Below, piece after piece: positions 26,974-58,993 of a stretch of 64,000 nt of DNA (position 1 is the first letter of the stretch; every line of letters starts with the position of its first letter). This DNA is from a phage: sequence record NC_111505.1; one strand, written 5' to 3'. The position numbers and the translations under genes are program-made. Under the pieces are notes generated by a model. It was not told the DNA's origin. It worked only from the letters and a program-made list of their open reading frames with translations, and searched no databases.

Positions 26974-26975
26974 TC

Positions 26976-28516: not shown

Positions 28517-28567
28517 GGTATGCCTCAAAAACGTAATAGTGTGGATTTCTAAATGGAGACTGATTAA

Positions 28568-28948: not shown

Positions 28949-29052
28949 TCGATTTTAAGGCCTCAAACGAGGCCTGTGCCTTCATAAACTTCCTACCTAT
29001 GTGCGATTACCCTTCTGAATAAAATACCCTCTCAAATTGCTTAAAATTAAGC

Positions 29053-29081
29053 TTGACACTAACACCAGATTTATATATGAT
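29053..29081 (+). promoter_or_regulatory. sigma70-like promoter (TTGACA-17-TATGAT)
   Basis: consensus -35, 17-nt spacer, 5/6 -10, about 30 nt upstream of GAGGAG and ATG 29112. Confidence 0.5.
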
Positions 29082-29111
29082 TATCTCACCAACCCAACAG
29101 AGGAGATTGTC

Positions 29112-29519: not shown

Positions 29520-29522
29520 GAA

Positions 29523-29723
29523 ATGGCTGATTTTTGTAAAGATTGCTCTGAAGAGTTGTTTGGCTTTGACTGCAAAGATTTGGAAGGTCTGATCACTGAG
29601 GATCAGTGGAAGGAAGGCTATGCAGCACCTGTTATTTGTGAAGGTTGTGGCTATACCTATGTTGACCATAAAGGTAAGCGCGTCAAGCCGTCTGAAGATG
29701 GGGCATGTTGGGAGTATTACTAA
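29523..29723 (+). CDS. small zinc-ribbon-like protein
   Basis: 66 aa; CKDC...CEGCGY Cys pairs. Confidence 0.45.
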   Translation: MADFCKDCSEELFGFDCKDLEGLITEDQWKEGYAAPVICEGCGYTYVDHKGKRVKPSEDGACWEYY

Positions 29724-29732
29724 CTATAAAAA

Positions 29733-29760
29733 GAAAGGGGCCGTTTGGCCCCTTTTTTAT
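29733..29760. terminator. bidirectional rho-independent terminator between convergent blocks
   Basis: AGGGGCC-GTTT-GGCCCCT flanked by A-run upstream and T-run downstream. Confidence 0.65.
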
Positions 29761-29771
29761 TTACCCCCTTG

Positions 29772-34442: not shown

Positions 34443-35409
34443 GAGCCATTATTACCTCATGGGTGTAGGTGATATTCAAGGCACGCCATGTATCATCTCC
34501 CCAAACATCTTGCCCGTAGAATACGTTAACAAGTTGCTGGTCATCAGGTCTGTGCATTCTTTGTGTTACAACCACTGCCCCGTTCGGACCGCACATGAAC
34601 CCTTTCCACTCCTCATCTGTAGGAATGCCCCTCAAATCGTCACGGGTAATCTGAGCGGGGGGCCAAACGAGAGTGTTTCTACTATTGTTTCTCAGAAAGT
34701 CATATCCAGCAATCCAGAAACCTCTAGGACCACCGAAAATAACAGAGTTATCATGCACCTCACAGTTAATGCTTGGGTTTTTCCAAGGACCTGTTTCAGG
34801 ATTTTCCGATGTTTCACCAATCTTTACAGGGGTTGCATGCTGGTTTTTATCCACATGCAAAGACCCGTAGGTGTTGTTACCAGATCCGTACAAGTGTAAA
34901 ATGCCAGTGCCTTCTGCCTCTGCCATAACCCAGACGGTGTTGTTAATACCACCCATCACCTCAACAAGGCGCTCTGGGTGGGTGTCAAGGTGCAATCCTT
35001 TAACGATTTGTTCAGGAAGAGGTGTCCACTCCCTTACACAAACATCATTACCGCCTGCAGCATCAGACCCAATAAGCCCTGCAGTACAGCCGATGTAGAA
35101 AAACTGATTATCAAAAGTTCGGATCACAAACGCACGGTCTGCTCTCCACACATGATCAACGTTCCAGGCAGCCTCATTAGGGTAGTTTATCGTGTCAAGA
35201 TCCCCAGTCCTACACTCCCCGAACCTGTTGTACCCTGTGATATTAAGCTGACCATTGTCAAAAAGTATAGCTAAGCTATTTACATAGGCTACTGTAGTGC
35301 TTGTACCGTCACTGTTGTCTATTGGGTATGACAGAACAGCAAGTTCCTTAACTCCACCCCTCTTATCGAGGAAATGACGACCAAGTTTTAGCAAAGGGAT
35401 TGGAAGCAT
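34195..35409 (-). CDS. beta-propeller-like protein (RCC1-like repeats); possibly the N-terminal part of the downstream giant protein
   Basis: repeated aromatic/Gly motifs (YGSGNNTYGSLHVD, FYIGCTAGLIGSD); C-terminus overlaps the giant ORF by 248 nt. Confidence 0.5.
   Translation of the reverse strand: MLPIPLLKLGRHFLDKRGGVKELAVLSYPIDNSDGTSTTVAYVNSLAILFDNGQLNITGYNRFGECRTGDLDTINYPNEAAWNVDHVWRADRAFVIRTFDNQFFYIGCTAGLIGSDAAGGNDVCVREWTPLPEQIVKGLHLDTHPERLVEVMGGINNTVWVMAEAEGTGILHLYGSGNNTYGSLHVDKNQHATPVKIGETSENPETGPWKNPSINCEVHDNSVIFGGPRGFWIAGYDFLRNNSRNTLVWPPAQITRDDLRGIPTDEEWKGFMCGPNGAVVVTQRMHRPDDQQLVNVFYGQDVWGDDTWRALNITYTHEVIMARGYGTSGIFFNNGTKQYRGFSRNLCNDIGAQSANNSPRANFIHYQALATAKYVEQRLPVSWTESVYFQGIHREGFFRNLYCC
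34216..34222 (-). other. T7 homopolymer at the frame junction between ORF 34195..35409 and ORF 29772..34442
   Basis: minus strand GAAGG-TTTTTTT-AGGAAC about 20 nt before the upstream stop; removing one T joins ...IHREGF to LGTFTVVNGKLWWSG... as one ORF of about 1880 aa. Confidence 0.5.
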
Positions 35410-44966: not shown

Positions 44967-47900
44967 TTAGTCGTGAGACTCGTTCCAAGGTCCCTGGAAG
45001 CTAGAGTTTGAACGACTTACTACAACGGTAGGACAGGATATTGTGATGCCTGTCACGTTCCCTGTTGACCACGGCGTGTAAATTTCAACGATAATGTCTA
45101 TGGTTTGTTCTCCAAGGCCTGTTATCCCGATAGCGCACATACCGTCATTGTCGTTTCCGTACTTCTTGCCAGCAAGGAGCTGATGACCAGCTATCCACGC
45201 ATTCAGTTGAGAGTTGGCACGCGTACCGTTCAGTTTAAAGAAGAATGTTACGTTCTTACCTTGGCCTTGTACGTTGTCCACATATCTCCATCTCCAACGG
45301 CAAACCCTTTGCTGGGAGTTATATACTGGAGCACAATCCCCGTAAGTCCTGTGTGCAACAATTGCACCTTCGAACTGGTTAGCGCGGATAACAGAAGCTT
45401 CTACACGACCACGGAAGGTACCTCCGGTTGCATCTATGGTGCCTCTAAAGCTACCATTATTGGCATAAACATCCCCACGGAAGGTACCACTAGTGGCGTT
45501 AACTGCCCCTGTGAAGTTACCAGAACTGGCGTTGATGTTGCCTTTCACCCACACATCCATAAATTGGGCGTGCCCGTTCTTGTTAATATACCAACCGTAT
45601 TTATGGTACCCGTTGCCATCGTAGTTGTTTGACGAAATTTCTTGTGCAATCTTGGCAGAAGAGATCGTCCCGTTCTCTATAAAAGCATCTTTCAAGAACG
45701 CTTGGTTGTTCTTGATTGCGAAAGCAAGGGTTGCTGTTCCATTTCCAGGGTTGTATACCGCAAAGTTGTTTGCACTAACCATGAAGTATGATTGTACTTG
45801 GCCTCCAGAACCTTCCATGCCCAATTGGATACCTGCCACATACTTATTCCCTGCGGAGTCTACCTGTATTTTTGTGCCCCATTGAGCATTTACTTTGCCC
45901 TCTAAGTCGGTCACAGCCTTAGATGTTGTAGCCACTGCAGCTCTTAGCTCTGATACATCCCCAACATCATCAATGATCTCCTGCTTAGCAACAGCAAGTT
46001 CTTGACGAATAGCTGACGCTGTGCCATTAATAAGATCCACGGTTGCTTTGTTGGTATCGGAGATTGTAGCATCTAGAGCTGTTTTTGTGGAGGTCAGTTT
46101 ACCATCCAAATCCGCAATCGCCTGTTTGTTGGTAGAAATCTCCCCACGTGCAGAAGTTATCTGCTCCGACAGTGCGGAGGTTTTCTGATTCAACAAATCT
46201 GTGGTGGCCTTGTTGGTATTGGCAATCAGGGTATTGAGATCAGTTTTTGCGGTAGTTATCTTACCATCAAGGGTGGTATAGTTCTTAGATACTGTCGCGT
46301 TTGTCTGACTGATCTTTTGATCCAGAGTTTCAGAGGTCCTGTTGAGAAGATCCACTGTCGCCTGGTTGGTGCTTAAGATGCTTGCATCAAGTTCCGTTCT
46401 CTGGGTATTGATCTTGCCATCTAGAGTTTTATCTCCAGCAAGGTATCCGCTCTCCACACCACTTATTTGTTCTACCAACTCCCCTTTGGCTGCAACCAAT
46501 TTCTCGTCCAAAGCCTCTGTCTTTTTGTTCAGAAGATCAGTGGTTGCTTTATTGGTTGTCTCAATCAGGGATGCCAATCTTCCACTTTCAGTGTTCAAAT
46601 CGTTGGTGAACTTGTTCTGTGCAGCAACAAGTTTCCTATCCAGCGCTGTGATATTGCCATTGACATCCTCAAACTTCTGAGTTGTCTCTGTAACTACCGC
46701 ACCTATTCTGTCTCCAAGTTGCTGGAATGCCTCATCTACCCTACCATCCATGTACCTGTTAAGTTCTGTGACACGATTTTCAACCTCTTCAATAGAGGAA
46801 TCCAAAGTGCTCATCAACTCTTTATAAGTTTCTGTCTTTTTGAATTCAGCATCTATCTGAGGCATCAAATCCTCAATAGAGGTGTAGCAGCGTGCAGCGC
46901 ATTCTACAAACTGAGAACTGCCAAAAGCGTTTGTGGTCCGAATATACCAATAATAAACCTTATCGTTCTGCAGACCTTCAGATGTCCAAGTTGAACCAAC
47001 ACCCATACGGGTGGCGTTTGAAGTAACGGTTGCATCACTGGTGTCGGGCAACCTTGTCATACCGGATGTCCAAAAGTCATACTGGGTGCTTACACTTGCC
47101 AAATCCCTGCTGTGTGGAATCAAGGTGATAGCAAAGTATCCCTGCTTAACCTCTACAGAAACCGGAGCCTCAGGTGCCTGAATGTTAAACTCGCAGTACG
47201 CTTCTGGAGATACACCACCTTTATAAGATGTTGCAACCACGGTTGCTGTGTATGACCCTTTGGTCAAACCTTCTACTCTGACAAACTGCTCAACTGTCTG
47301 TGCTGTCCAAACAATCTCTCCGTTCTTTCTTACCTGCACAATATTTTGAGCGTAAGTCCCAACGTTGTCCCAAGCTAAAACACCGTGAGTTACTTCTCCA
47401 GCTTGGAGAACGGAATATCTGAAGTTTTGCGGTTGAGCTACACCAGATGGGGATATCGGAATATCTACATCGCCAGAATCCGGAAGTTGCCCTGTGGCAT
47501 CATTCCACTCTTTAGCATCTTGACGAAGTTTTACCTTGACACCGCCCTTTTTGGTGAACTCCCATTCAAGAACCCTCATTTCTTGGCCCACTATACCAAT
47601 ACTTGGGAGGTCCATTGTAACATAACGGCCAGGCTTAAATTTAAAACCTCGCATATTGCAGGTGACTTCAATAATCCTGCCAGCTCTAGCACGTCTTAAG
47701 AAGATTGCAGAAACACGTTGAGCTTGATAAGGACTGGTAACAAAGCGATAGTCTATATCGATTATCTTTCTTTCTCCATCCTTCTCTATCCACTCTGGTA
47801 CAAACACTGATGGGAAATCTGTTTCAGAATACCCTTTGGTCGGACTAGTGAATCTGCCAGTTATTGTGTTAGATCTTTTGTCAAATGAGGCTTCCGGATA

Positions 47901-48806
47901 GATCTTAACCTCACCACAGACACAGTCCTCCCTCAATGTCATTGTTGCCGGACCATAGTATGCACCAACCAGCAAACCATACTTACCAGCAACATAACTA
48001 AGGTCTGCACCGCAAGCTTTCAGCATTTCTGCCATAATACTTGCTGGGGCCTCATCCATGTCAAACTCACCGTTAATGGTGTAACGTCGCTCACTGGTGC
48101 CGTCAGCGTTTTTTACCGCCTCGTCGCATATGTTGGCAGCCTCCCTGAAGGACTCCCAGTTGATGGTTTCGTCAGGACATTTAAGGTATGTTCTTAAATA
48201 GTCCAGAATCACCAAGGCAGCGTTATTGGTATACACCTCTTTACTGGTGCGAGGATCATAGCATTTTTTACCAACCTTAACGAGTGTTACGTTTGGCAAC
48301 CCAAAAGGAAACTTGTTAGGGTCAAACCTAAAGCTGACCCGTAGCCAACTGATCCCTCTGCCTATCATGTCCGGTGACCACGATGGGCAGTGTGTTCCCA
48401 TAAAAGGATCAGAGGTTTTTCTGTCGTTATGTAGCTCCCACGATACCAAATCCCCATACGAAGAAATAGGATTACCGTCGATAAGTATATCTTCTATACC
48501 TTCTAGAGGGTGATTGGCAAGAACAATGGCACAATGGAGGGTTCTGTCTCTATCCTGCTCCAAAAATGCAAGCAATCCAGATGTACGTGTCTTCCCATAT
48601 ACTACAGAACAAGGTGCAGCAGAAGATCTAAGAAGCTTTTGCCTATCTTGCTGACTTCTGTAAGATTTGTTACCCTCGAAAATCTTATCCAGAGTTCTGG
48701 TGGTAACAGTGTTCAGGCTGTCAGCCAGAGCTGCCTTGGATGCGTTCCAGTCATAGCTTGAAGATCTTGCAGAAGCAACGATGTTATCAATCATTGCAAT
48801 TGGCAT
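44967..48806 (-). CDS. central tail fibre / host specificity protein (J-like) with coiled-coil repeats and fibre tip
   Basis: 1279 aa; N-terminal 450 aa resemble the lambda J / GTA g15 tail-protein family; tandem repeats in the middle; C-terminal GxFRG repeats. Confidence 0.5.
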   Translation of the reverse strand: MPIAMIDNIVASARSSSYDWNASKAALADSLNTVTTRTLDKIFEGNKSYRSQQDRQKLLRSSAAPCSVVYGKTRTSGLLAFLEQDRDRTLHCAIVLANHPLEGIEDILIDGNPISSYGDLVSWELHNDRKTSDPFMGTHCPSWSPDMIGRGISWLRVSFRFDPNKFPFGLPNVTLVKVGKKCYDPRTSKEVYTNNAALVILDYLRTYLKCPDETINWESFREAANICDEAVKNADGTSERRYTINGEFDMDEAPASIMAEMLKACGADLSYVAGKYGLLVGAYYGPATMTLREDCVCGEVKIYPEASFDKRSNTITGRFTSPTKGYSETDFPSVFVPEWIEKDGERKIIDIDYRFVTSPYQAQRVSAIFLRRARAGRIIEVTCNMRGFKFKPGRYVTMDLPSIGIVGQEMRVLEWEFTKKGGVKVKLRQDAKEWNDATGQLPDSGDVDIPISPSGVAQPQNFRYSVLQAGEVTHGVLAWDNVGTYAQNIVQVRKNGEIVWTAQTVEQFVRVEGLTKGSYTATVVATSYKGGVSPEAYCEFNIQAPEAPVSVEVKQGYFAITLIPHSRDLASVSTQYDFWTSGMTRLPDTSDATVTSNATRMGVGSTWTSEGLQNDKVYYWYIRTTNAFGSSQFVECAARCYTSIEDLMPQIDAEFKKTETYKELMSTLDSSIEEVENRVTELNRYMDGRVDEAFQQLGDRIGAVVTETTQKFEDVNGNITALDRKLVAAQNKFTNDLNTESGRLASLIETTNKATTDLLNKKTEALDEKLVAAKGELVEQISGVESGYLAGDKTLDGKINTQRTELDASILSTNQATVDLLNRTSETLDQKISQTNATVSKNYTTLDGKITTAKTDLNTLIANTNKATTDLLNQKTSALSEQITSARGEISTNKQAIADLDGKLTSTKTALDATISDTNKATVDLINGTASAIRQELAVAKQEIIDDVGDVSELRAAVATTSKAVTDLEGKVNAQWGTKIQVDSAGNKYVAGIQLGMEGSGGQVQSYFMVSANNFAVYNPGNGTATLAFAIKNNQAFLKDAFIENGTISSAKIAQEISSNNYDGNGYHKYGWYINKNGHAQFMDVWVKGNINASSGNFTGAVNATSGTFRGDVYANNGSFRGTIDATGGTFRGRVEASVIRANQFEGAIVAHRTYGDCAPVYNSQQRVCRWRWRYVDNVQGQGKNVTFFFKLNGTRANSQLNAWIAGHQLLAGKKYGNDNDGMCAIGITGLGEQTIDIIVEIYTPWSTGNVTGITISCPTVVVSRSNSSFQGPWNESHD
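45950..46750 (-). repeat. imperfect tandem repeats encoding coiled-coil modules within the J-like gene
   Basis: four to five units of about 50 aa (TNKATTDLLNKKT, TNQATVDLLNRTS, TNKATTDLLNQKT, TNKATVDLINGTA); DNA units recur at about 160-190 nt; coordinates approximate. Confidence 0.5.
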
Positions 48807-49243
48807 TAATACCTCCAGACATCAACAACGATAGAATCTTTCATATCGAACGTAAAGATCCCTTTATCACCTTTCGCCCAAATCTGGTTGTTCCAGAACA
48901 CACCAGCGGTGAGGCCGTTCAGACCTTCGAAAATAACAATATCACCACGCTGAACCTGTTTAGGAGTATCCAGTCGAGTCAAAAAGAGATCAAAAATAGT
49001 AGGCAGGTGTGTGGTTTTGAAACGGAGCATGCACCATCTCTTGCTTTCCAACTCTGTTTTATACGTTCCTTCAAAGTTAGAAAGAAAATCTGTTCCGTAT
49101 TGGGCATCAACACATTTAGCCGCAAAAGTGCAACAATCGTGGAATCCCCATTCAAACGGGGCGGTGGCTTCTTCGTCAAATACTTTCCACAATTTTTCTT
49201 GCCAGTCTACTAAACGAGGGTGTGTGCTCATTAAACCTCCCAA
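48806..49243 (-). CDS. putative tail tip protein, possible NlpC/P60-like peptidase
   Basis: 145 aa; GFHDCCTF Cys motif; directly upstream of the J-like gene. Confidence 0.3.
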   Translation of the reverse strand: MGGLMSTHPRLVDWQEKLWKVFDEEATAPFEWGFHDCCTFAAKCVDAQYGTDFLSNFEGTYKTELESKRWCMLRFKTTHLPTIFDLFLTRLDTPKQVQRGDIVIFEGLNGLTAGVFWNNQIWAKGDKGIFTFDMKDSIVVDVWRY

Positions 49244-49797
49244 ATGATCGGGCGGCTCGCCACCTGATCCACATATTTAAAAAATCTGTCATTATCGTTT
49301 CTTGAGCTATGGCTTTCCTCTGTGTATCGGTAAGGAAAACCTCTTAACCAGCTGTTGAAGATGGAAGAGATGGATATGGACAAAGCACTATTCTCCCCTG
49401 TCTGAATAGCCATGTCTGTTATAAGGCCGTCAAACAAGCCATTAGTTGTGACAGGTAAACCATTCTCCATAGCGGTGATATATAACGTGGCACGGCAACC
49501 AGAGTACTCCGTCTTCAGCAGATCGCCAACATATTTAGGATCAAACCCGTTCAATGTTGCTACCACAGATCCGAAGTTGGTGGCATCTTTCTCAGACACA
49601 GCAGTCAATGTTGCTGATCCACCTATCCCTATAAAATGTTGCCCCTCAATCACCACAACACCAGTTCCTGAGCACACCCTGACAGTCCCTGTTGGTAGCT
49701 CTAACTTTGCAGCAATTAAGATTTCAACACCATCAAGCTCTAACTTTTCAAGAAATAAATTATCTAATGGCGCTCTTATCATCTTAGAAATCCTCAA
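49231..49797 (-). CDS. putative tail tip/hub protein
   Basis: 188 aa; context upstream of the J-like gene. Confidence 0.3.
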   Translation of the reverse strand: MRISKMIRAPLDNLFLEKLELDGVEILIAAKLELPTGTVRVCSGTGVVVIEGQHFIGIGGSATLTAVSEKDATNFGSVVATLNGFDPKYVGDLLKTEYSGCRATLYITAMENGLPVTTNGLFDGLITDMAIQTGENSALSISISSIFNSWLRGFPYRYTEESHSSRNDNDRFFKYVDQVASRPIIWEV

Positions 49798-50374
49798 AGA
49801 AGTTGATAACTATATTGTCACCTTTCTGCATAGCATCAACCTTTTGCTTAATTTTATAAAGATCCCTGATATGAAATCTACCCTTCGGAGATTGAGTTAT
49901 TATCTTCATGGTATCCCCTGCGGCAATAGGTTTCCTAAGTCTTGGGGATATGTTTATAACAGCGGCCCCAACACCATCACTTCGTACTGATGCTGTCACC
50001 ACTTTCAACTCATCATTGACAGATATTTTATCCCCAGCCCTGGCTATATCCCTGTTGGGCTCCCAACCAACCGTCTTCAAAAAATCGTCGTTACCAGTCG
50101 GTCCGAGAGCGATTGGCTCGTTGGAGGTCACTGAATGCCCATAAGCCTTGATGAGAAAAATGTTTCCATCTTTGTAAACCTGATCAACAAAACTTTTAAG
50201 CTCCAACAACTGAGATTCACTGATATTGGAAACCGTCAAAGTACCTTTCCAGTTAGGTGTGGCATAGGTTACTTTTTGCGTCTTACCTGTAAACGGGCTT
50301 TTAAATGTAACGATGTCTGCCAGTAACTCCAATCTAATATCTGGGAGGTATCTAGGCCTTTCCCATAAAAACAT
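49784..50374 (-). CDS. putative distal tail protein
   Basis: 196 aa; context only. Confidence 0.3.
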   Translation of the reverse strand: MFLWERPRYLPDIRLELLADIVTFKSPFTGKTQKVTYATPNWKGTLTVSNISESQLLELKSFVDQVYKDGNIFLIKAYGHSVTSNEPIALGPTGNDDFLKTVGWEPNRDIARAGDKISVNDELKVVTASVRSDGVGAAVINISPRLRKPIAAGDTMKIITQSPKGRFHIRDLYKIKQKVDAMQKGDNIVINFFEDF

Positions 50375-50439: not shown

Positions 50440-50466
50440 ACAAAAAGCCCCCGCCGAAGCGAGGGC
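50440..50466 (-). terminator. rho-independent terminator
   Basis: minus strand GCCCUCGC-UUCG-GCGGGGGC + UUUUUGUUUG after the long fibre gene. Confidence 0.5.
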
Positions 50467-50473
50467 AAAACAG

Positions 50474-53400
50474 TTACTTCAGTTTCTCTTGCAACTCAGT
50501 AACAACCTCCGTCAATTTTTTAACCTGCTCCTCAAGGGCGGTTATTTTATCATCCTGTTCCCTGCAAACCTGGACAAGCAAACCTGTTACAGCTGCGTAG
50601 TCAACGTTATAGAACCTTTCCTCGGTCATCAAAGGAATGCCGTCTTGAGTAGGACCTTCTATTTCCTTCCTTTTCACGAAAGACCCTACTGCCTCTGGCA
50701 ATGCTTCCATAACCTCTTGAGCAATCACGCCTGCATAAGGCATACCATTCTCTTTCAAGGTGTAGGTATAGCCATTCATCTTCCTGATAGCTTCCAGCGC
50801 GTCAGGTATGACCTCTATATTATCCTTCAGATCCCTATCAGAACTTTGACTAACAGTGGTACATACTACCGCACCGTTGACAGCAAAATATCTTGACTTG
50901 GCCTCATCTGCCTTGGCCCCACAGTGGAATACCCAGCTGCCGGTTGTTGAGTTATCACCTATCTGAAACTCCAGCACGTTCTTCCTATCTGCGCCATTGC
51001 CCCAATAGTACAACCTGCCTGTATTAGAAGGCATGTTGGAAGTGTTGGTAACATCCGCTCCACCACCTGTGTGTATTGTAAACTCTGGTTCAAGATTGGA
51101 GCCTTGAGTTTTTAAAGTGATACCCTTACCACCTAGCTGCTGCCAATGGCCCCATGTGAAAACACCACCTATCGTTGTTCCATAACGTAGGAATTTTTCT
51201 CCAAGGTACGATATATATTCCTGTACGCAACTTTCTGGAACGTTGGCGTAGTTCCTGTATACGATAAGCGTACCTGCCTGGGAACATGGGTAGTTTCTAT
51301 CAGGTGTGGCTTGAGCATTGGCCTCCTGATGATAAAAACCCTCCCTATCTCCTTTGTAGTCGTTAAGGTCATTAGTTCCCAACCCTTGACCACGGTGCTG
51401 AATAACTTTGTTCCACGCTCTGTGGTTACCCTGCTCTATGGAACGGGTGTACAGCTGATCTAAACGACCTGCCATCTGGAAAGCATAGTTTCCAGAAAAC
51501 GCCACAGACAACCCGCCAACAACCATTGAACCTTCAGGCCCGTTGACGTTGCCAGCCAGTATTTTGGACGGATTATTATTTCCGAACTGGTTGTTCCAGT
51601 CTGCACCTGTGTGGCATACAAAACCACCAGGGGCCGAGAAAGTACCGTCTTTGTTGAAATTGTAGAATCTGTGAGCGGAACCTACAACATCACGAACAAT
51701 AACTTGACCAGCTTCTGGAGTAGACCTGAACTCTGCTTGACCTTGGAGGCCAGCACCATTACCACATTTAGAGGTAAACGTACCGTTAGTAAGATCATCT
51801 GTCCCATCTGATGCACACTGGAATCCTGCATTAGAGAATAACGCCTTTCTAGGACTGCCGTAGCACAAATAGTCAATACCGTCAGCCCATAGTTCGACTT
51901 TAGGCATGTTCATTTTGCTCATCACCGCATAGCGTTCAGCAGTGCCTATATAGTGCCACTGTGTGCCGCCGCCAGTGTAGAACCCAGAGGTACCTTTGAA
52001 GTCAACAATAGGTCTGGTGTTGGTATTGTTATCTCCAAGAACAGCCAGATTTAAATCTGCTGACTGGAGAGGTGCAACGAACTTAACACCGTCCTGATTG
52101 TTTGTTACAGAGCCGACTTGATAATCTTGCTCTCTGGTAAACACTTCGACAACATTTCTACTTGCGTATATGCTGACAGGGAAAGCACGAGCCTCCGCAT
52201 AGAAAGCAACATACTCTTGTTTACCCCTTGTTGGAGCAACCATCCCAAGAAGTGCTTTTTCATTTTGATAGAAATTCACTACCCCGTAGAAAGAGTCTCC
52301 TCTATCTGTCCAACCACCAGTCCTATAGTGGCACTGTAAGGTGGCGCAGTTCATAGGGTCACCACCGGATGACGATCTGGTGACTAGGGTAATATCAGTG
52401 CCAGTTGCTGGAGCATAGTACGGATCTGTTCTAACGATGATTGGGTAATATTTCCCATCTTCCATACCTGCAGTTCTTGGCAGTGTTAAGAAATCTTTGA
52501 CACCCGCAGCTATAGGAACTTTGAACAGATTCTGAGCATCTGCCAGGGTTGTAGCCCCAGTACCACCCGCTGCCTGAGGTAAAGGTTCCCACTTGGCCTT
52601 CCGGTTGTTATAAACACCCCATTCCAGAGTACCATTACCGGATTCATCCATACCGCCATCCCAGACGACCATCTTAGCGGCTTTCTTGGAACCCCAGAAC
52701 CCTCTTTCTGCCCCTGAACTACGAATCCATTCCCCAAGTCCCCAGTTTGTCAGCTGACCAGTGAGATCCCCGACCTGCATGTACTTAGGACAATCTAATA
52801 CACCATCTTCACGGAATCCTAAATACCGATGAGTTTCAGATCCTTTTGCGCCTTTGTGCAGGTGGACTGTTAACCAAGTCTTATTGTCGTTTCTTACCTC
52901 GGAGTAGATCCTATAACCATGCTCAAGAACACCATCAGCGTCATATTTATCTCCATGGAGAATACCTGAAGCATTTTTAACATCTCCTGAGTATTGAGCT
53001 AAGTAAAGGTGCCCGAAAGCAGGGGAGTTGTTTTTACCAAGGCCGATATGAGATCTGAAGGTGTCATCATTACGAGGTCTGACCATCGGCTGCCATGCAG
53101 TCCACTGGTTTGTGTTGGCCTGATAGGTTCTCAAATACCAAACATCCACGTTAGAGAATGGATAGTATTCCTGACGACAACCTGTACCACCGTTAGCATT
53201 GTTCTGCCAAACAATCAAGTGACCAGCACCAGAACCTGCAGGATAACCATTTGCCTCAGTTGCATTAGCAGTCATCGGCTGATAGTATATGCCGTCCTGA
53301 TTACCAGTCAAGTTATTGATATTGAAATTTGCCTCAAGGGCTGCACGTTGCTTATAGAAAGCACCGATATTGATACGGACTCCAGCGGCATCTCTGGCAC

Positions 53401-54274
53401 CTGTACCACCTTGCTCTATAGCAAGAGGTTGCCACGAGGCTGTTTGCTGGTTCCACATACCCCAACGGCCTGCTGCATCAAGCTGCAAGTACCCTGCCGT
53501 GTTTAAATCATCTCCAGCACGGATAACTGTTCTTGTTGGGTTGTTTGCCTCCAGGCGTTTAAATTCATCACGAAGTGCTATTCTTTTTGTTGTTGCTACA
53601 CCGTTGGTTACTGCAATGGTATACATGGCTCCTGAGGTAGCGCCACGGAAAATACCATCAACAGTTGTAGTATCACGACGAGATACCACACCGTTCAGAA
53701 ATTTTTCACCAGCTGCTTCAGAAGGGTAGTTAGTGGTTCTTCCCTCTTCAATAACTGCAGGGCCAACAAAGTTGACAAGGTGAATGACATCGCCTACAGT
53801 ATGCACAGTACCAAAATCTACCCGCTGTGCAAGCGCTTTAGCATCGTTGGCTGTCTGAACCGTAACATCCATTACATCCTGGACAGACTGCCCTTCAGCT
53901 GTCATGATCATAGATGCGCCAATGGTAGACTCCAGCTCCTCCCTTAAGGACGGGTCTGTATATACCATCCATGCAGCATCGGTAATCCCACCATCAGCGT
54001 ACGGTGAAGACAGTGCAGGAACAGTGTGCGGAAATTCGCCTTTCCAACGCAGGTAGAGGTCTTCCTCTTCGAAGTAGGCAAAATCCATTGGGCCGTTTAA
54101 CTTACCACCTTCCTTAAAGGAGATTACATGAGAAACAGTCCCATCCACATGGACAACATCGCCAATTTTTACACGACGGGTCAGGTCTGGTTGTTGAACA
54201 ACCAGGTAATCATCCTCTGTCACTGCGGTAGTGGCAGGAAGAGATTCAATTCTGACAACTTTAATATCAGCCAT
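50474..54274 (-). CDS. long tail fibre with C-terminal intramolecular chaperone (peptidase S74-like) domain
   Basis: 1266 aa; C-terminal SDRDLKDNIEVIPDALEAIRKMNGYTYTL... matches the endosialidase/T5 pb1-type autoproteolytic chaperone; N-terminus shares an anchor module with 56909..57577. Confidence 0.75.
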   Translation of the reverse strand: MADIKVVRIESLPATTAVTEDDYLVVQQPDLTRRVKIGDVVHVDGTVSHVISFKEGGKLNGPMDFAYFEEEDLYLRWKGEFPHTVPALSSPYADGGITDAAWMVYTDPSLREELESTIGASMIMTAEGQSVQDVMDVTVQTANDAKALAQRVDFGTVHTVGDVIHLVNFVGPAVIEEGRTTNYPSEAAGEKFLNGVVSRRDTTTVDGIFRGATSGAMYTIAVTNGVATTKRIALRDEFKRLEANNPTRTVIRAGDDLNTAGYLQLDAAGRWGMWNQQTASWQPLAIEQGGTGARDAAGVRINIGAFYKQRAALEANFNINNLTGNQDGIYYQPMTANATEANGYPAGSGAGHLIVWQNNANGGTGCRQEYYPFSNVDVWYLRTYQANTNQWTAWQPMVRPRNDDTFRSHIGLGKNNSPAFGHLYLAQYSGDVKNASGILHGDKYDADGVLEHGYRIYSEVRNDNKTWLTVHLHKGAKGSETHRYLGFREDGVLDCPKYMQVGDLTGQLTNWGLGEWIRSSGAERGFWGSKKAAKMVVWDGGMDESGNGTLEWGVYNNRKAKWEPLPQAAGGTGATTLADAQNLFKVPIAAGVKDFLTLPRTAGMEDGKYYPIIVRTDPYYAPATGTDITLVTRSSSGGDPMNCATLQCHYRTGGWTDRGDSFYGVVNFYQNEKALLGMVAPTRGKQEYVAFYAEARAFPVSIYASRNVVEVFTREQDYQVGSVTNNQDGVKFVAPLQSADLNLAVLGDNNTNTRPIVDFKGTSGFYTGGGTQWHYIGTAERYAVMSKMNMPKVELWADGIDYLCYGSPRKALFSNAGFQCASDGTDDLTNGTFTSKCGNGAGLQGQAEFRSTPEAGQVIVRDVVGSAHRFYNFNKDGTFSAPGGFVCHTGADWNNQFGNNNPSKILAGNVNGPEGSMVVGGLSVAFSGNYAFQMAGRLDQLYTRSIEQGNHRAWNKVIQHRGQGLGTNDLNDYKGDREGFYHQEANAQATPDRNYPCSQAGTLIVYRNYANVPESCVQEYISYLGEKFLRYGTTIGGVFTWGHWQQLGGKGITLKTQGSNLEPEFTIHTGGGADVTNTSNMPSNTGRLYYWGNGADRKNVLEFQIGDNSTTGSWVFHCGAKADEAKSRYFAVNGAVVCTTVSQSSDRDLKDNIEVIPDALEAIRKMNGYTYTLKENGMPYAGVIAQEVMEALPEAVGSFVKRKEIEGPTQDGIPLMTEERFYNVDYAAVTGLLVQVCREQDDKITALEEQVKKLTEVVTELQEKLK

Positions 54275-54287
54275 TCTTTCTCCTGAA

Positions 54288-54307
54288 AGGGGGCAAACAG
54301 CCCCCTA
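54288..54307 (-). promoter_or_regulatory. hairpin immediately upstream of the fibre gene RBS
   Basis: AGGGGGC-AAACA-GCCCCCU, then UUUCAGGAGA and ATG 54274. Confidence 0.3.
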
Positions 54308-54309
54308 TG

Positions 54310-56907
54310 TTAAAGGTACAATCCACGGTATTGAGCATAAAGTCCCAGACCGCGAAGGATTTCGCCAGAGTGATAGCCTACCGGATCAGAAACTGCCCAG
54401 CAGCCGTTTAAAACATTATCCCCGTTAATGAAGTGGTGCTTTTGTAGTAACTTCACACAGGCTTCTACAACAATATCTATTTGAGGTATTGTCTCTGAAT
54501 ACCCGCAAAGACCTAGCCAGCAGCAACCTGCAAGCCATTCACCTACCACCCACATCCTGTCCCCTCTGTCTTGATAAGAATATCCACCAGAGGTGTTAAA
54601 GTCTGTAGGGAGATTTCCGGAATGAGATGACTGGAATCTGTTGAGGAACCATGCCCATTTCTGGCAGAACAGGAACAGTCTCTCATCAACAGGTTCTTTA
54701 TGTTTCTTAAGCTCATACAGTGTGCGGCACGCAGCAACAAAGGCTCTTGATTGGAGTTTAGAGTTATCTACCATCTCCCACCAACCAGTCAACCCCTCAT
54801 TACCCCTCTGCCATACGTAGCGGGATGCAACTGGTCCTTCTGTTCTAAATGTGTTATTATACCAAACTTGGGAGTCGTACATAAATCCAATTGTATTTGC
54901 CAATCTTTGACGATCTATGTTTTCCGCACCCATACAGTAGACTACCGGATATTGCATGCCGGGATAGGGCCAATTTGGCCTTTCCTCTAGAAGATAATTC
55001 TCCTTATCTATCACCTTTCCGGCAGGGAACACACCCGGAGTGTGTCTGTATGCGCCTTGCTTGTAGTTTCTGACATAGCAATCACCAACCTTGGCTGTTG
55101 ATTCTGTCTTGCTTGCCATCCATACACTAAACCAGATCATATAAGCATCTCTGTCTGCAACATAAAATTGCGGCAGCGTGTTGACGCAATACAGATCGAA
55201 CAAGCCATTGCCTATCTGCCTGTCGCTCAGGCTGAAATCTACAGAGGTAATTCCTTTAGGGTTAGCAAAGAAAGGTTTAATCTCATCTTCTGTGTGATGA
55301 GGTTGTGTCGGGTCTAGTTTAAAATCCCCTAGGGTAAGAGTTTCTGTTATCCATTGTCCGTTAGTGGCATATAGATCAGCATACCATAACCAACGGTCTT
55401 TGTCAAGAAATTTGACCCTTACCATCTCATCATCTGATCGATAAGTTACTGAGTTTAAAGAGATCTCTCTTCCAAAATTGAAAGTTACCTTGCCTCTTGC
55501 TATGTTGCAACGGGTGAAGTTGTCGGAGTGGTTATAAATGTCGGTATCATACTGCATACTAACACTAGCGCCACCGCTTACGACAATGTTTTCCTCTTTT
55601 GGTAAGAGATACGGGTTACCATCTTTACCAACCACCTCTACGAAATCGGTAACCTTGGCAACTGTCTCTGTTACCTCTGCCCCTCCAAAAGGGACACCTA
55701 TCCTATACTGTTTTTTGTTATTGTTGCCATCATTAAGAATGAAGTGTGGCTGGAACAGAACCCCTTCTCCTCCGAAATTCATAACAATTTCAGCATCTCT
55801 GCCTATCTTGTATGTAGTCCCTTTTTGGATTATTTCGCAAGGTTGGCGTGCGTTCATTCTAAAATTGATATACCCGTCACTGTCCCTGCTCATGACAGGA
55901 ACTGTTCCTGCAACAAGACAAGTACCATCTGTAAACGGTGCCTTAATCAACGTGGTCTTTCTAAACAGTTTGTCGTAGGCATTTATATCACTGAAATTAA
56001 GCAGCTTGTTGTAAGACTGCTTAAACGCAGTGTAATACTTTTCCTCACCTGTCAAGGTGTAGAGTTGATAACAAGCGTCACACCACATTTCTTCCCCGTC
56101 CAACTCTGGGGCTTGATTGTCTGCAACCACATTTATAGGATTTACAATTACAGGGGATCCAGCAGGTATCACCGATCCACCCTGCTCTTGTGGCAATCTC
56201 ACACAGTAGGTTACCTTGTGACTTCCTGTAACACCCTTATCTTGTAATTGGATTGTGCCGAACTCTACAGACGTATGACCACTGTCGGCTATACTACCGT
56301 TAGCCCAATAGCGGTTACCATCCCATGCTATATACCACTCAACCCACCAACTTAATCCGGATGTTGTCCAATCTGGGTTAGCATCTGTGCCACCGTAAAC
56401 ATCGGAGTCTACAGTGTTTCTTCCTAACACACCGTTATACGCTTGGAATGCCTTGTCCAGGTATTCACCCCATGTTGGAGATCCTGCTGGAATTTTTCCT
56501 CTACCATTGGTAAAAGACACCACCACATCTTTAAACCCACCGTGTGATGGAACCCCATCTGTGGATAGAGGGTAGTGGGACAATCTTTGCATTTTACTTT
56601 CTACTGCATATGCACCCAGAAGATGACTATTGTAAGCTTCCCAAGCATCTTTTGCCCTATCCAGATAGAAATCGCTTTTCGATGCCCTATATGCTTCAAT
56701 GTATCCCAGAATCAACACAGCTTGGGACTCATGCATTGCCCAATCATTATTTATCTTATTACCTGCCCACCCTGCAGCTATAAGACCATCAGGGTTTACT
56801 AGCTTATTTTGTGTAGGGGTGTTGGTAATACCTGTGTTGTTATCGAGGCACTTCCTGTGCCCCTCAATCATCTGAAATACGTTATCAATGTTGTGTTGAA
56901 TACGCAT
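54310..56907 (-). CDS. tailspike-like protein, probable enzymatic (depolymerase-type) domain, lacking its own anchor
   Basis: 865 aa, W/Y/G-rich; start overlaps the stop of the 222-aa anchor-module gene. Confidence 0.45.
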   Translation of the reverse strand: MRIQHNIDNVFQMIEGHRKCLDNNTGITNTPTQNKLVNPDGLIAAGWAGNKINNDWAMHESQAVLILGYIEAYRASKSDFYLDRAKDAWEAYNSHLLGAYAVESKMQRLSHYPLSTDGVPSHGGFKDVVVSFTNGRGKIPAGSPTWGEYLDKAFQAYNGVLGRNTVDSDVYGGTDANPDWTTSGLSWWVEWYIAWDGNRYWANGSIADSGHTSVEFGTIQLQDKGVTGSHKVTYCVRLPQEQGGSVIPAGSPVIVNPINVVADNQAPELDGEEMWCDACYQLYTLTGEEKYYTAFKQSYNKLLNFSDINAYDKLFRKTTLIKAPFTDGTCLVAGTVPVMSRDSDGYINFRMNARQPCEIIQKGTTYKIGRDAEIVMNFGGEGVLFQPHFILNDGNNNKKQYRIGVPFGGAEVTETVAKVTDFVEVVGKDGNPYLLPKEENIVVSGGASVSMQYDTDIYNHSDNFTRCNIARGKVTFNFGREISLNSVTYRSDDEMVRVKFLDKDRWLWYADLYATNGQWITETLTLGDFKLDPTQPHHTEDEIKPFFANPKGITSVDFSLSDRQIGNGLFDLYCVNTLPQFYVADRDAYMIWFSVWMASKTESTAKVGDCYVRNYKQGAYRHTPGVFPAGKVIDKENYLLEERPNWPYPGMQYPVVYCMGAENIDRQRLANTIGFMYDSQVWYNNTFRTEGPVASRYVWQRGNEGLTGWWEMVDNSKLQSRAFVAACRTLYELKKHKEPVDERLFLFCQKWAWFLNRFQSSHSGNLPTDFNTSGGYSYQDRGDRMWVVGEWLAGCCWLGLCGYSETIPQIDIVVEACVKLLQKHHFINGDNVLNGCWAVSDPVGYHSGEILRGLGLYAQYRGLYL

Positions 56908-56908
56908 C

Positions 56909-57577
56909 TTAGATAGCTCCTGCGATAATCAGTGCCCCGTACCAAGTTAGCCCGTTGTCGTAGGTTTCCAACTTGAAAATGTCTGTTGCACCAGCTGTAA
57001 ATGTTAGGATAGGATCTCTTCCGTAGGACCATTTAACATTACCAGGCCAATAGACTTTGTTGCCGCCAGAGGTCTGAGTAATGCATACGGTTATGGTTCT
57101 CGCCACCCCTTCAAGACCTTCTGTTTGATTTTCAAAAGAGATTGTGGTATTTGAAGTTAGTCGAACCTTAAAGGTATCCGCAACTTCAAGATCCATATCA
57201 AGCTGACCACCGATAGATCCGTAATCAACTATTCTGCCAGAAGAAGTTGCAGCAAGCTCACCAAAAACAGACCAGGCATTTGCAGACACACCCCCAGCAC
57301 CCTCTACAGTGGAGTCTGGGAGGATTATTTTAGGATAATCCCCGTTCCACGTGTAGTAGCGCTTAGTTTCTGGATCATAAGCAAAGTCCTTCTTGCTCTT
57401 AAGATAACCACCCTCTGTGAAATAGACTATCTTAGTAATGCTAAGATCGTTGACAACATCGTCAATCTTAGCCTTTCTTGTCCCATCAGTCTGGTTGACA
57501 ACCAAGAAGTCATCACTCAGGACTGTTTCTGCATCTTCAAGATCTGGAATTGGTATTGTAGGATAAGCTACAGCCAT
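56909..57577 (-). CDS. tail fibre/tailspike N-terminal anchor-module protein
   Basis: 222 aa; DDFLVVNQTDGTRKAKIDDVV...FTEGGYLKSKKDFAYD parallels the N-terminus of the 1266-aa fibre. Confidence 0.5.
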   Translation of the reverse strand: MAVAYPTIPIPDLEDAETVLSDDFLVVNQTDGTRKAKIDDVVNDLSITKIVYFTEGGYLKSKKDFAYDPETKRYYTWNGDYPKIILPDSTVEGAGGVSANAWSVFGELAATSSGRIVDYGSIGGQLDMDLEVADTFKVRLTSNTTISFENQTEGLEGVARTITVCITQTSGGNKVYWPGNVKWSYGRDPILTFTAGATDIFKLETYDNGLTWYGALIIAGAI

Positions 57578-57586
57578 GATTTCTCC

Positions 57587-58303
57587 TTAGTTAACATCAA
57601 TAGCACGACCAGACTGGTTGGCAATAGCCTCATCATTGGAGGTAGCAATAACACCAGAGTATTCGCGCTCATCTGGAGCAAGCGTCCAGGTATTGCGGTT
57701 AATGGTTTGTTCTGCCTCAGTCATCAGCAGATCTTTATCCTGAGTCAACAGAGAGCCTACAGGGATCGGGTTTTCCATCTCAGGACCAGCATACTGGTTC
57801 CACCATGTGGCATCTCCGGTTCTAGGCAATCTGAAGTTGATCAGATAGTACAGTTTATTAGCCCACTTAATCCAACCCTCATCATCACAAAGAGAGGTTG
57901 TCCCAGAATCAGGCTGTGGGTAGGTGAGCTGATCAAGACCTACGAAGGCCAGCCTTACAATCTCGTTCTCTTTGGTAACAACCTCAAAGAACGCTTGGTA
58001 TGTTCTCGATCTTCGATCCATGGTAGACTGGAAGTTTATGATGTTTAGCACATCCGGCTCTTGTCTTGCCACTTCCATAATCTTGTTATCAAGAACAGTC
58101 TTCATGACCTTCTTACTGAGAAAGTCCATATAAGGGAAGCCAAACAGCTCGTCAAAGTACCAGCTCCCCTTCCACGTATTAAACCTCATCCACAAGCGCT
58201 GGCGCAGACTTACCTGGTTTGAATCTATCAACTCAAGACCTTTGTCTATCGCCAAATCTCCTGTTTGTGGGTCCATCAATATATCACTATAAAGCGTAGC
58301 CAT
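57587..58303 (-). CDS. putative baseplate protein
   Basis: 238 aa; context. Confidence 0.35.
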   Translation of the reverse strand: MATLYSDILMDPQTGDLAIDKGLELIDSNQVSLRQRLWMRFNTWKGSWYFDELFGFPYMDFLSKKVMKTVLDNKIMEVARQEPDVLNIINFQSTMDRRSRTYQAFFEVVTKENEIVRLAFVGLDQLTYPQPDSGTTSLCDDEGWIKWANKLYYLINFRLPRTGDATWWNQYAGPEMENPIPVGSLLTQDKDLLMTEAEQTINRNTWTLAPDEREYSGVIATSNDEAIANQSGRAIDVN

Positions 58304-58315
58304 GAAAGCCCTCTA

Positions 58316-58993
58316 TTAGTGCGGTCCACTTGTCTCGCCATCAGGGCAAGAGTGGGTATGACCTTTATATTCTGCATAGAATGAATCCAAATCCACACCA
58401 GCAGCAGTTATAATTCTACCAGATGGGTCTATTGTGGCACCATTCATTCTGATATTTCCATCCACAGCAGCTCGCAAATTGGCAGCCCCGTTAGTGAAAG
58501 AAAACTCCCCACTGCTGTCGCACCGTAATGTCCCACCCGGTGTTTGAAGCTCAAAATCGCCAGAAGGTGTCAGTTTAAAATAAACCCTATCATTCCATAA
58601 CTCTACGTTATCAGGATCAATTTGTAAAGCGTTCGAGTCTGAATGAACAGAGGTGATTGCCCACCCTGGAAACAGGCCGTGAGTTTGTTGATCGTCGTTA
58701 TTGTTTTCATTCCTCTCTGAAAACTGCAATCCTACAACATCTCCGGCCTTAATAGGGAGTGTTAACCTTGCCTTTCCGCTGTTTGCAGACATCACCTGAA
58801 TCGGAACGTCATAGATAAGAGGGTATCTCTCCACATCTCCGTCATCAAACGTGGTTTCAGCTATTGGCTGCACGGCTGCAGAAGGTATACTGTAGTCAAC
58901 ACTGACAACTCTGGCCCTGATACTGGTGTGGTAGTCCCTCATTATTTTTTCTATAAAGGATCTTACAGCAGCATCTTTCCTATTTATTGCCAT
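58316..58993 (-). CDS. putative baseplate central spike (gpV/gp5-like)
   Basis: 225 aa; C-terminal HTHSCPDGETSGPH apex-like His motif. Confidence 0.4.
   Translation of the reverse strand: MAINRKDAAVRSFIEKIMRDYHTSIRARVVSVDYSIPSAAVQPIAETTFDDGDVERYPLIYDVPIQVMSANSGKARLTLPIKAGDVVGLQFSERNENNNDDQQTHGLFPGWAITSVHSDSNALQIDPDNVELWNDRVYFKLTPSGDFELQTPGGTLRCDSSGEFSFTNGAANLRAAVDGNIRMNGATIDPSGRIITAAGVDLDSFYAEYKGHTHSCPDGETSGPH

Follow-up and report, generated by a model that had tools for sequence, protein, structure and literature searches.

How does a large tail protein without an attachment domain of its own come to sit on the virion? The question is raised by three minus-strand genes in the 64,000-nucleotide stretch of phage DNA that was analysed as a whole (the window), whose open reading frames were all confirmed and which encode, in the order of transcription, a 222-aa protein, an 865-aa protein and a long tail fibre of 1266 aa (Table 1). 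The phage is a Vequintavirus, that is, an rV5-like myophage of E. coli. rV5 has the same genes, coding for proteins of 222 aa (rv5_gp043), 865 aa (gp042) and 1272 aa (gp041), with an identical 1-nt spacer, and gp41, gp42 and gp43 have all been detected by proteomics in rV5 virions (PMC3606486). In phi92 the tail locus of the Justusliebigvirus type contains the counterpart of gp43/gp42 of the Vequintavirinae as gp140/gp141. The three proteins are matched by phrog_7760 (E=7.8e-120, residues 1-221 of 222), phrog_2871 (E=0, 1182 bits) and phrog_6578 (E=0, 1748 bits), respectively, and the 222-aa protein is 98-100% identical across more than 100 rV5-like genomes. Immediately upstream of its gene lies that of a 238-aa baseplate protein, and in the phi92-like phage Eryne the small adaptor gene is preceded by the equivalent of this position. 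The sheath initiator of phi92 is gp139 (PMC13450770).

Table 1. Features of the tail gene cluster, with positions in the window
Feature	Coordinates	Strand	Basis or remark
Baseplate protein, 238 aa, placed as sheath initiator	57587..58303	-	phrog_4233 and phrog_120 'baseplate wedge subunit'
Adaptor gene, 222 aa, rV5 gp43 homologue (rv5_gp043)	56909..57577	-	full-length phrog_7760 match
N-terminal peptide motif, adaptor residues 1-47, common to long fibre	57437..57577	-	46-position HMM
Tail_spike_N domain of adaptor, residues 51-105	57263..57427	-	PF18668
All-beta domain at the adaptor C-terminus, residues 109-222, proposed to dock the 865-aa protein	56912..57253	-	
AGGAG ribosome-binding site of the 865-aa gene	56917..56921	-	inside the Ala-Gly codons ending the adaptor gene
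865-aa (alpha/alpha)6-barrel glycosidase-like virion protein (rV5 gp42, phi92 gp141 family)	54310..56907	-	
Small GC hairpin (GGGGC-TGTTT-GCCCC) in the 35 nt that separate the 865-aa gene from the long-fibre gene	54290..54304	-	sequence reading
Long tail fibre, 1266 aa, rV5 gp41 homologue	50474..54274	-	phrog_6578
N-terminal module of long fibre, residues 1-105	53960..54274	-	BLASTP, PF18668, N-peptide HMM
Peptidase_S74 domain of the 1266-aa fibre	50687..50842	-	Pfam PF13884
Intrinsic-terminator-like hairpin and T-run	50447..50466	-	directly 3' of the long-fibre gene, closes the unit

The 222-aa and the 865-aa protein are made as two polypeptides, as the preliminary description had supposed. 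Their genes adjoin at a TAA-G-ATG junction (ATC TAA G ATG), so that the 865-aa gene does begin at the stop codon of its neighbour, but one base behind it and without overlap. It has a ribosome-binding site of its own, an AGGAG placed 9 nt from the ATG (...GCAGGAGCTATCTAAGATG), and in Schickermooser, Eryne and GAP31 the TAATG junction likewise has GCAGGAG before it. The two genes are probably translationally coupled. The 1-nt gap and the Shine-Dalgarno-like AGGAG just before the stop superficially resemble the +1 frameshift site of prfB, and a frameshift or readthrough joining the two frames, suggested earlier as something to look for, was checked. In the frame of the 865-aa gene a TGA stands 8 codons upstream of the ATG, and neither a slippery heptamer (X XXY YYZ) nor a re-pairing codon was found between the two; by the decoding rules, the tRNA-Ile on AUC should be unable to re-pair on UCU. 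Because of this TGA, the lack of a slippery heptamer and the separate AGGAG we see no route to a fusion. The identical split recurs in more than 100 independent genomes, and among distant relatives frames and junctions differ (TAATG overlap, TAAGCCATG, or overlaps of 4-11 nt) while two genes are kept. We thus give practically no credence to the view that the two proteins are joined by programmed frameshifting or readthrough, or that the split is a sequencing artefact.

The relationship that had been noticed between the 222-aa protein and the start of the long fibre holds on pairwise alignment (BLASTP, 38% identity over 99 aa, residues 8-105 versus 7-105, E=3e-18), and by sequence comparison the first approximately 105 residues of the two proteins are homologous. 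In both, the shared module consists of a 46-aa N-terminal peptide followed by the Pfam domain Tail_spike_N (PF18668, TSP1/Gp66 N-terminal domain), which scores 41 bits in the 222-aa protein and 39.1 bits in the fibre (residues 46-103) against a gathering cutoff of 25 bits. When the first 110 residues were compared by phmmer with all window ORFs of at least 60 aa, only the 1266-aa protein was found (E=2e-17; next E=0.25). Matches to the HMM of the N-terminal peptide are limited to the 222-aa protein, the long fibre (E=2e-23), GAP31_221, GAP31_223 and small proteins of 157 aa from phi92-like and phAPEC8-like phages (E 1e-15 to 1e-26), whereas the Tail_spike_N part of the adaptor matches phage tail and tailspike proteins in the PDB, including TSP1, TSP3 and TSP4 of CBA120. 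That the N-terminus of gp43 resembles that of a tailspike was already noted in 2013 (PMC3606486).

The 865-aa protein contains neither the N-terminal peptide nor Tail_spike_N in HMM and Pfam searches, and in seven of seven relatives from the protein database the N-terminus is in the same place, again without the anchor, in agreement with what had been proposed. That it is a tailspike, as it had been called, is true only in part. A classical trimeric right-handed parallel beta-helix tailspike was considered and rejected, there being no central beta-helix; instead the protein is predicted to fold as an (alpha/alpha)6 barrel interrupted by beta-rich inserts of roughly 170 and 350 aa. Judged by this model, the barrel with its large beta-sandwich inserts is a glycoside-hydrolase-like domain, and the enzyme-like character that had been ascribed to the protein is in this sense retained. 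Four acidic residues (E60, D270, D502 and D609) are near-invariant among 21 non-redundant sequences, E60 and D270 being located at helix N-termini. The protein belongs to no Pfam and no NCBIfam family, and its sole profile match is a weak one to cellobiose 2-epimerase (E=6e-4, about 40 residues). With the (alpha/alpha)6-barrel glycoside hydrolases (GH48, GH8, GH88/GH105, GH76) and AGE-type epimerases it shares only 9-13% identity and no family-level sequence match, and it differs from the glycoside hydrolases in that the beta-rich inserts split its barrel. Among recognised phage depolymerases the fold is rare, accounting for 1.1% of DepoScope fold hits (PMC11326577).

Similarly, the 222-aa protein is only in its first half the anchor for which it had been taken. 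The other half is a conserved domain of about 110 aa with one Asp-box (YDNGLTW), for which neither a Pfam match nor a PDB sequence match was found. AF2 models the protein poorly (pLDDT 50.6, below 50 in the N-terminal half and about 60-80 in the C-terminal domain), and the fold matches obtained with the model are accordingly leads only. At E<=1e-3 the family of the C-terminal domain comprises 4033 representative clusters. Of the 150 best, 130 have the domain at the C-terminus, and none of the 150 contains a Rosetta-stone fusion with the barrel protein. It also occurs in tandem copies within long fibre-like proteins; since, in addition, the family may be larger than that of the 865-aa protein, roles unrelated to the big protein are possible.

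As far as sequence comparison can tell, it is this domain, and not the anchor, that travels with the 865-aa family. Among cultured phages tblastn hits 535 records with the C-terminal domain and 526 with the 865-aa family; the taxa are distributed almost alike, and the two genes are adjacent in every record listed for both. In nine cultured-phage lineages with a separate upstream gene (phAPEC8-like, phi92-like, GAP31, SPN3US, Rosemountvirus, Kolesnikvirus, a T7-like phage, an N4-like phage and a Vibrio myophage) this gene ends in the C-terminal domain each time (E 1e-17 to 1e-29). The same is true of all 67 IMG/VR loci with upstream DNA, where the domain ends the gene directly upstream and the aligned part of the big gene starts 0-55 nt after the end of that ORF. 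The N-terminal parts of the adaptors, on the other hand, are virion-attachment domains that vary by lineage: Phage_T7_tail (the T7 fibre N-domain), the N-terminal domain of P2-type Phage_tail_fib, a tube-protein-like part, SPRY or a coiled coil. Thus, the L059 adaptor begins with Phage_tail_fib N where that of the window begins with Tail_spike_N, and in only 9 of 190 non-redundant pairs are the N-terminal parts homologous, whereas the C-terminal domains are homologous in all. In the T7-like phage Atoyac13 the pair occupies the gp17 slot; the adaptor begins with Phage_T7_tail, and a T7 tail-binding domain is missing from the big protein. Goslar differs in that a 280-aa N-terminal extension is fused to the big protein instead and no C-domain gene lies upstream. 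Overall, hundreds of unrelated phages have the pair, and its attachment end differs from case to case.

Set beside the observed homology, separate frames, ribosome-binding site, fold and invariant synteny with swapped anchors, and the detection of the proteins in rV5 virions, the reading that we favour, and consider fairly probable, is that the 222-aa protein is an adaptor which carries the glycosidase-like 865-aa protein on the virion. Its N-terminal 105 residues or so, a paralogue of the module with which the long fibre begins, would fix it to the baseplate or fibre network in the manner of that fibre, and its C-terminal beta-domain would recruit the separately translated 865-aa protein, so that the two make up a single appendage of two polypeptides, for receptor binding or glycan processing (gp43 and gp42 in rV5, gp140 and gp141 in phi92). 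We infer physical binding through the C-terminal domain because of the synteny; a baseplate attachment site, a stoichiometry, a catalytic activity and a substrate of the pair are presumed at the same level.

But could the two proteins not simply be neighbours? Their adjacency could reflect co-assembly or co-regulation alone, and the 222-aa protein might be a self-contained short spike with the C-terminal domain as its distal receptor-binding knob, the 865-aa protein attaching to the baseplate independently and the gene order merely reflecting common expression or assembly order. We regard such a short spike with an independent neighbour as rather improbable, as the pairing in 67 of 67 IMG/VR loci has survived complete replacement of the N-terminal anchor and different tail morphotypes, the Atoyac13 pair fills a single gp17 slot although its big protein lacks a T7 tail-binding domain, and the big proteins are without any recognisable anchor. 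The position of the 865-aa gene directly downstream of a fibre-like gene, together with translational coupling, is also reminiscent of fibre-chaperone pairs. However, a protein that acts mainly as assembly factor or chaperone for the upstream-encoded fibre protein and is no functional component of the virion would hardly be expected among the proteins detected in rV5 virions, as gp42 is (PMC3606486), and known fibre chaperones do not resemble a family of 865-1157 aa with an enzyme-like fold; since small chaperones are moreover encoded separately in this phage, as a Tfa-like protein of 194 aa and an intramolecular S74 domain, we consider this role very improbable.

A different matter is what the adaptor would carry. 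The 865-aa protein might be a non-catalytic scaffold or lectin, a fibre-positioning arm or glycan-binding module rather than a depolymerase, with the adaptor model otherwise correct. Within the genus it is over 95% conserved, and identity among phages whose hosts differ widely is 25-35%, a pattern also compatible with a structural function in place of an enzymatic one tied to the host; the protein is recognisable in Vibrio, Aeromonas, Stenotrophomonas, Erwinia and enteric phages. Moreover, one relative (P0007) adds a fibre-like C-terminal part of 700 aa, no glycosidase family of Pfam or NCBIfam is matched, and (alpha/alpha)6 barrels also occur in non-hydrolases such as epimerases and terpene cyclases and in the archaeal virus tail protein 7xdi_F. 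We hold a non-catalytic role to be rather unlikely, but to be reckoned with.

An adaptor with a payload has precedents, and the present cassette looks like an undescribed variant of a principle known from SP6/K1-5, KP34 and CBA120. In SP6, K1-5 and K1E the small virion-bound adaptor gp37, with a T7-type attachment domain, is the docking place of the anchorless enzymatic gp46/gp47, a two-component principle described for the Autographiviridae (PMC9145550). By its sequence the present pair likewise has the virion-attachment domain on the adaptor and none on the partner, and Atoyac13 has exactly the SP6/K1-5 layout, built with the present cassette. The differences are that the docking domain is of another family, with no Pfam or PDB match, that the payload is an (alpha/alpha)6 barrel and not a beta-helix or beta-propeller trimer, and that the cassette is also present in myoviruses, N4-like podoviruses and siphovirus-like elements. 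Close systems are the TSP1-4 network of CBA120, the T4 gp10-like (XD) branching domains and the anchor-branch model of Klebsiella phage depolymerases. We go one step further only tentatively, giving somewhat less than an even chance to the idea that the Asp-box beta-domain is a portable docking socket dedicated to one (alpha/alpha)6-barrel family and grafted onto at least five unrelated virion anchors. The anchors in question are the T7 gp17 N-domain, the P2-type fibre N-domain, Tail_spike_N, a tail-tube-like domain and coiled coils, and the phages are of myo-, podo- and siphovirus-like type. That socket and payload are never fused in the sample may reflect unequal symmetry, with a trimer for the adaptor and a monomer for the enzyme.

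In the literature on rV5 and phi92 both proteins figure as separate tail or fibre candidates, and we found no description of a pairing through the C-terminal domain of gp43/gp140. The preliminary count of at least six receptor-binding or depolymerase candidates on this tail agrees with published accounts of Vequintavirinae and phi92, and for the many fibres of rV5-like and phi92-like phages the assignment of genes to fibres is described as unclear in the BASEL paper (PMC8594841). The cryo-EM study of phi92 left fibre II unassigned and does not mention gp141. The ESCO8 copy of the 865-aa family, reported to be more than 97% identical to phi92 gp141 (PMC10269720), is 35% identical to the protein of the window. 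Recognition of gp43/gp140 as the adaptor of gp42/gp141 would give a concrete, testable assignment of two conserved virion proteins in phages that are among the most often isolated and therapeutically considered coliphages, and if the socket exists, the phi92 gp140-gp141 complex would become a candidate for fibre II, or alternatively for the fibre I arm. If the docking domain works on T7-, N4-, P2- and rV5-like anchors, it would be a ready-made plug for the engineering of receptor-binding proteins. The 865-aa family would add an under-recognised enzyme class other than the beta-helix to depolymerase prediction tools, from whose training the alpha/alpha toroid fold is currently excluded (PMC11326577).

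The long fibre carries near its C-terminus (residues 1145-1196 of 1266) a Peptidase_S74 domain (PF13884, 54.8 bits, cutoff 22), the intramolecular chaperone of endosialidase-type fibres; a Tfa-like protein of 194 aa is encoded separately in this phage. The GC hairpin ahead of the fibre gene was not called by the terminator scan, while the hairpin behind it has a stem of 8 bp, 7 of them GC pairs, followed by TTTTTGTTTG. Residues 1-1046 of the fibre are 93% identical to the EmilHeitz fibre of 1478 aa.

The relatedness of the N-termini of the 222-aa protein and the 1266-aa long fibre, proposed in the preliminary description, is borne out by pairwise alignment, in which residues 8-105 of the former and 7-105 of the latter are 38% identical (BLASTP, E=3e-18), and both proteins pass the Pfam threshold for Tail_spike_N (PF18668). 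The homology stops at about residue 105, and only the first half of the 222-aa protein is the anchor common to the long fibre. Two elements make up this module, an N-terminal peptide of 46 aa and, behind it, the Tail_spike_N domain. When the first 110 aa of the 222-aa protein were compared with every ORF of the window, the long fibre was the sole match (E=2e-17; next 0.25), and no further copy of the module was found in the window, including the 581-aa fibre, the 690-aa fibre and the giant protein. An HMM of the 46-aa peptide alone also picks up small proteins of 157 aa in phi92-like and phAPEC8-like phages. In GAP31 it matches both a 223-aa protein and a protein of 712 aa whose gene comes directly after the big one. 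These two GAP31 proteins parallel the adaptor and the long fibre of the window, and the peptide matches indicate that two proteins with the same anchor flanking the big gene are a recurring layout.

The region (window 54000-58400) is found at 96-98% identity in more than 110 genomes of Vequintavirus (rV5-like) myophages. In the annotated relatives EmilHeitz, HMD-6 and rV5 the gene order is the same, namely sheath-initiator-like baseplate protein, 222-aa protein, 865-aa protein and long fibre, the last three being gp43, gp42 and gp41 in rV5, with lengths of 222, 865 and 1272 aa. The relatives' annotations read 'tail fibre / sialidase domain protein' for the 222-aa gene and 'tail protein / lateral tail fibre protein with glycosidase domains' for the 865-aa gene. 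The hairpin between the 865-aa and long-fibre genes is too T-poor and was not called by the terminator scan. The adaptor and barrel genes are also matched by 23 'Campylobacter phage' records (MG0656xx, e.g. MG065676.1 and MG065690.1; host Campylobacter jejuni); those among the matches listed share 96-100% identity with E. coli rV5-like phages over the adaptor/barrel region, and their host labels look doubtful.

Positions of the genes and features discussed, in the window or in a compared locus
Feature	Position	Strand	Remark
222-aa adaptor gene	56909..57577	-	rV5 gp43
865-aa barrel-protein gene	54310..56907	-	rV5 gp42
1266-aa long-fibre gene	50474..54274	-	rV5 gp41
GC hairpin GGGGC TGTTT GCCCC, then CTTTC	54290-54304	-	35-nt spacer between 865-aa and long-fibre genes
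Strong terminator	50466-50447		end of operon: baseplate genes, adaptor, barrel protein, long fibre
Swapped fibre tip	50469-51286; compared locus L001 15507-17287		distal end of 1266-aa fibre
Lambda/siphovirus-type tail-tip block	44967-50374	-	inside myovirus baseplate module
404-aa ORF / 1556-aa giant ORF	34195-35409 / 29772-34442	-	overlap about 250 nt at listed GTG start
GAP31_223, 712 aa, Cronobacter phage GAP31	L008 12462-14600		N-peptide in common with adaptor, E=4e-15
Start of big 'tail protein', Escherichia phage PiR	L005 3459-3642		annotated start apparently displaced
563-aa adaptor locus, IMG/VR contig 3300031418_000467	L029 1313-6353		about 40 similar loci

Residues 109-222 of the 222-aa protein form an all-beta domain in the model (pLDDT about 60-80; the model of the full protein is poor, 50.6), hereafter the C-domain, whose single Asp-box probably accounts for the 'sialidase domain' annotation. 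No Pfam family covers it and sequence searches of the PDB gave no relative; an exhaustive phmmer search recovered it in 4033 representative clusters at E<=1e-3. In 130 of the 150 best clusters it lies at most 15 aa from the C-terminus; 32 matched proteins carry tandem copies, and no Rosetta-stone fusion with the barrel protein was found among the 150. We speculate that such fusions are absent because a trimeric adaptor and a monomeric barrel would not match in symmetry.

What recurs upstream of the big gene is this domain. By tblastn, 535 phage records contain the C-domain and 526 a member of the 865-aa family; the taxon counts are nearly equal, and the two adjoin in every record present in both listings. 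In nine of ten lineages inspected a small gene immediately upstream of the big gene ends in the C-domain (E 1e-17 to 1e-29) and begins with an N-terminal part that varies; the tenth, Goslar, has no C-domain gene upstream and carries a 280-aa N-extension fused to the big protein. In the T7-like podovirus Atoyac13 the pair fills the gp17 slot, flanked by internal virion protein D and holin, and the small protein bears the attachment domain Phage_T7_tail (Pfam). When IMG/VR was scanned independently with the 865-aa profile, 71 loci were obtained, 67 of them having upstream DNA. In all 67 an upstream ORF of about 160 to 567 aa has the C-domain as its C-terminus (E 1e-17 to 1e-45) and stops 0-55 nt short of the first residue aligned in the big gene. 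Among the N-parts of these ORFs are a P2-type fibre N-domain, SPRY domains preceded by coiled coils and, in a siphovirus-like context, a major-tail-protein-like domain. Among 20 non-redundant pairs all C-domains are homologous, as against 9 of 190 comparisons of the N-parts. The mirror-tree correlation of C-domain with big-protein identity (Pearson 0.52) is compatible with a co-inherited unit and carries no independent weight for a contact.

On the IMG/VR contig of the table and at about 40 similar loci, on contigs of 12-40 kb, the adaptor is 563 aa long; its N-terminus resembles the major tail (tube) protein phrog_158 and is followed by fibre repeats and the C-domain. The gene is placed between the head genes and that for the real major tail protein (168 aa), which suggests a siphovirus-like particle in which a paralogue of the tube protein displays the barrel protein.

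The 865-aa protein belongs to phrog_2871 and, like the C-domain, gave no family-level match in Pfam, NCBIfam or PDB sequence searches. A word-indexed homologue search returned few relatives (6-7 for the 865-aa and 4 for the 222-aa protein), and the alignments for structure prediction are therefore shallow. The AF2 model of the 865-aa protein, built on 8 sequences, is of moderate quality (mean pLDDT 69.8); its barrel helices reach 85-95, and the beta-rich insert at residues 330-615 is confident. Because of this model and a weak profile match to the helices of cellobiose 2-epimerase, we read the protein as an (alpha/alpha)6-barrel, glycosidase-like and split by beta-sandwich inserts; a BFVD fold search returned nothing beyond sequence homologues. 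The enzyme-like fold agrees with the enzymatic part postulated earlier, but the protein is not a beta-helix tailspike of the classical kind. Invariant or nearly so in 21 non-redundant members are E60, Q62, D270, R316, R341, D502 and D609 as well as Q652, N671, Q680, W699, R701 and R721. In the model E60 and D270 are at the N-terminal ends of barrel helices, which is where (alpha/alpha)6-barrel enzymes place their catalytic residues, and the protein may be enzymatically active. Its homologue in phi92, gp141, has had a glycosidase listing since 2012, as cited in PMC5380687. Few of the recognised phage depolymerases have the alpha/alpha toroid fold (PMC11326577).

Are anchor and barrel made as a single polypeptide or as two? 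At the junction the sequence is GCA GGA GCT ATC TAA G ATG, so that the two genes adjoin as described before, yet the ATG does not coincide with the stop codon but follows it by one base, in the +1 frame and with AGGAG 9 nt upstream. This layout resembles the prfB +1 site. However, the 865-aa frame contains a TGA 8 codons upstream of the ATG, no slippery sequence was found in the short open stretch between, and by the decoding rules the Ile-tRNA on AUC should be unable to re-pair on UCU. The junctions of relatives differ: TAATG in Schickermooser, Eryne, GAP31, phiEa104 and, once its annotated start is corrected, PiR; TAAGCCATG in SPN3US; and an overlap of 4-11 nt in Atoyac13, Philippe and K447. 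The annotated start of the PiR big gene appears to be ~180 nt too far downstream, as the ATG overlapping the adaptor stop opens a frame encoding the conserved family N-terminus EGHHHFLERNTGRT. In rV5, gp41, gp42 and gp43 are listed among the virion proteins detected (PMC3606486). Fusion by frameshift or readthrough is thus extremely unlikely, and the conserved state is two translationally coupled polypeptides, as the preliminary description had supposed.

To the observed homology, reading frames, fold and synteny we add the arrangement inferred as most likely, with an adaptor-barrel contact, its baseplate site, stoichiometry and chemistry. Adaptor and long fibre would be seated at equivalent or neighbouring baseplate sites through their paralogous N-modules, the C-domain would hold the barrel protein, and the latter may bind or cleave a conserved surface glycan. 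Our analysis supports the small protein as an adaptor with its own docking domain, although its binding of the barrel protein is deduced. That the 222-aa protein is instead an independent short spike and the big protein is bound on its own seems unlikely. A chaperone role of the big protein is highly improbable, as it is detected in virions. Compatible with the adaptor model, and a possibility to be taken somewhat more seriously, is a payload that acts as a non-catalytic scaffold or lectin.

In SP6 and K1-5 the receptor-binding protein is likewise split into a virion-bound adaptor and an anchorless enzyme, as is established, and CBA120-type and KP34-type systems also use this split. Different from these, the present docking domain is an uncurated family, the payload is not a beta-helix, and the cassette is portable across anchors and morphotypes. 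The genes themselves are already known and carry annotations, and there are good descriptions of the multivalent 'Swiss army knife' tail that rV5-like phages possess (PMC8594841). In the phi92 structure paper gp140 figures as a candidate on its own; the paper makes no mention of gp141 and leaves fibre II without assignment; the adaptor-barrel pairing is not described in the rV5/phi92 literature compared, and an earlier description in Schwarzer et al. 2012 is possible.

Residues 1-1046 of the long fibre are 93% identical to the EmilHeitz/HMD-6 fibre, in which a longer tip (1478-aa protein), followed by a separate 110-aa gene, takes the place of the distal ~220 aa with their intramolecular chaperone, Peptidase_S74; the difference is an allelic swap of a tip-and-chaperone cassette. 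The tail-tip block encodes a distal tail protein of 196 aa, a protein of 188 aa, a 'cell wall hydrolase' of 145 aa and a J-like protein of 1279 aa that has Phage_Tail_Tip and Ig_J domains, and the rV5 annotation of these genes notes similarity to siphovirus PY54. GC and AT skew are positive from ~22 kb to 30 kb (window about 22000-30000) and negative elsewhere in the window, and this change of sign suggests an opposite-strand gene block in an otherwise minus-strand window. Finally, because the 404-aa ORF overlaps its listed GTG start, the giant protein probably starts further downstream than in the ORF list.
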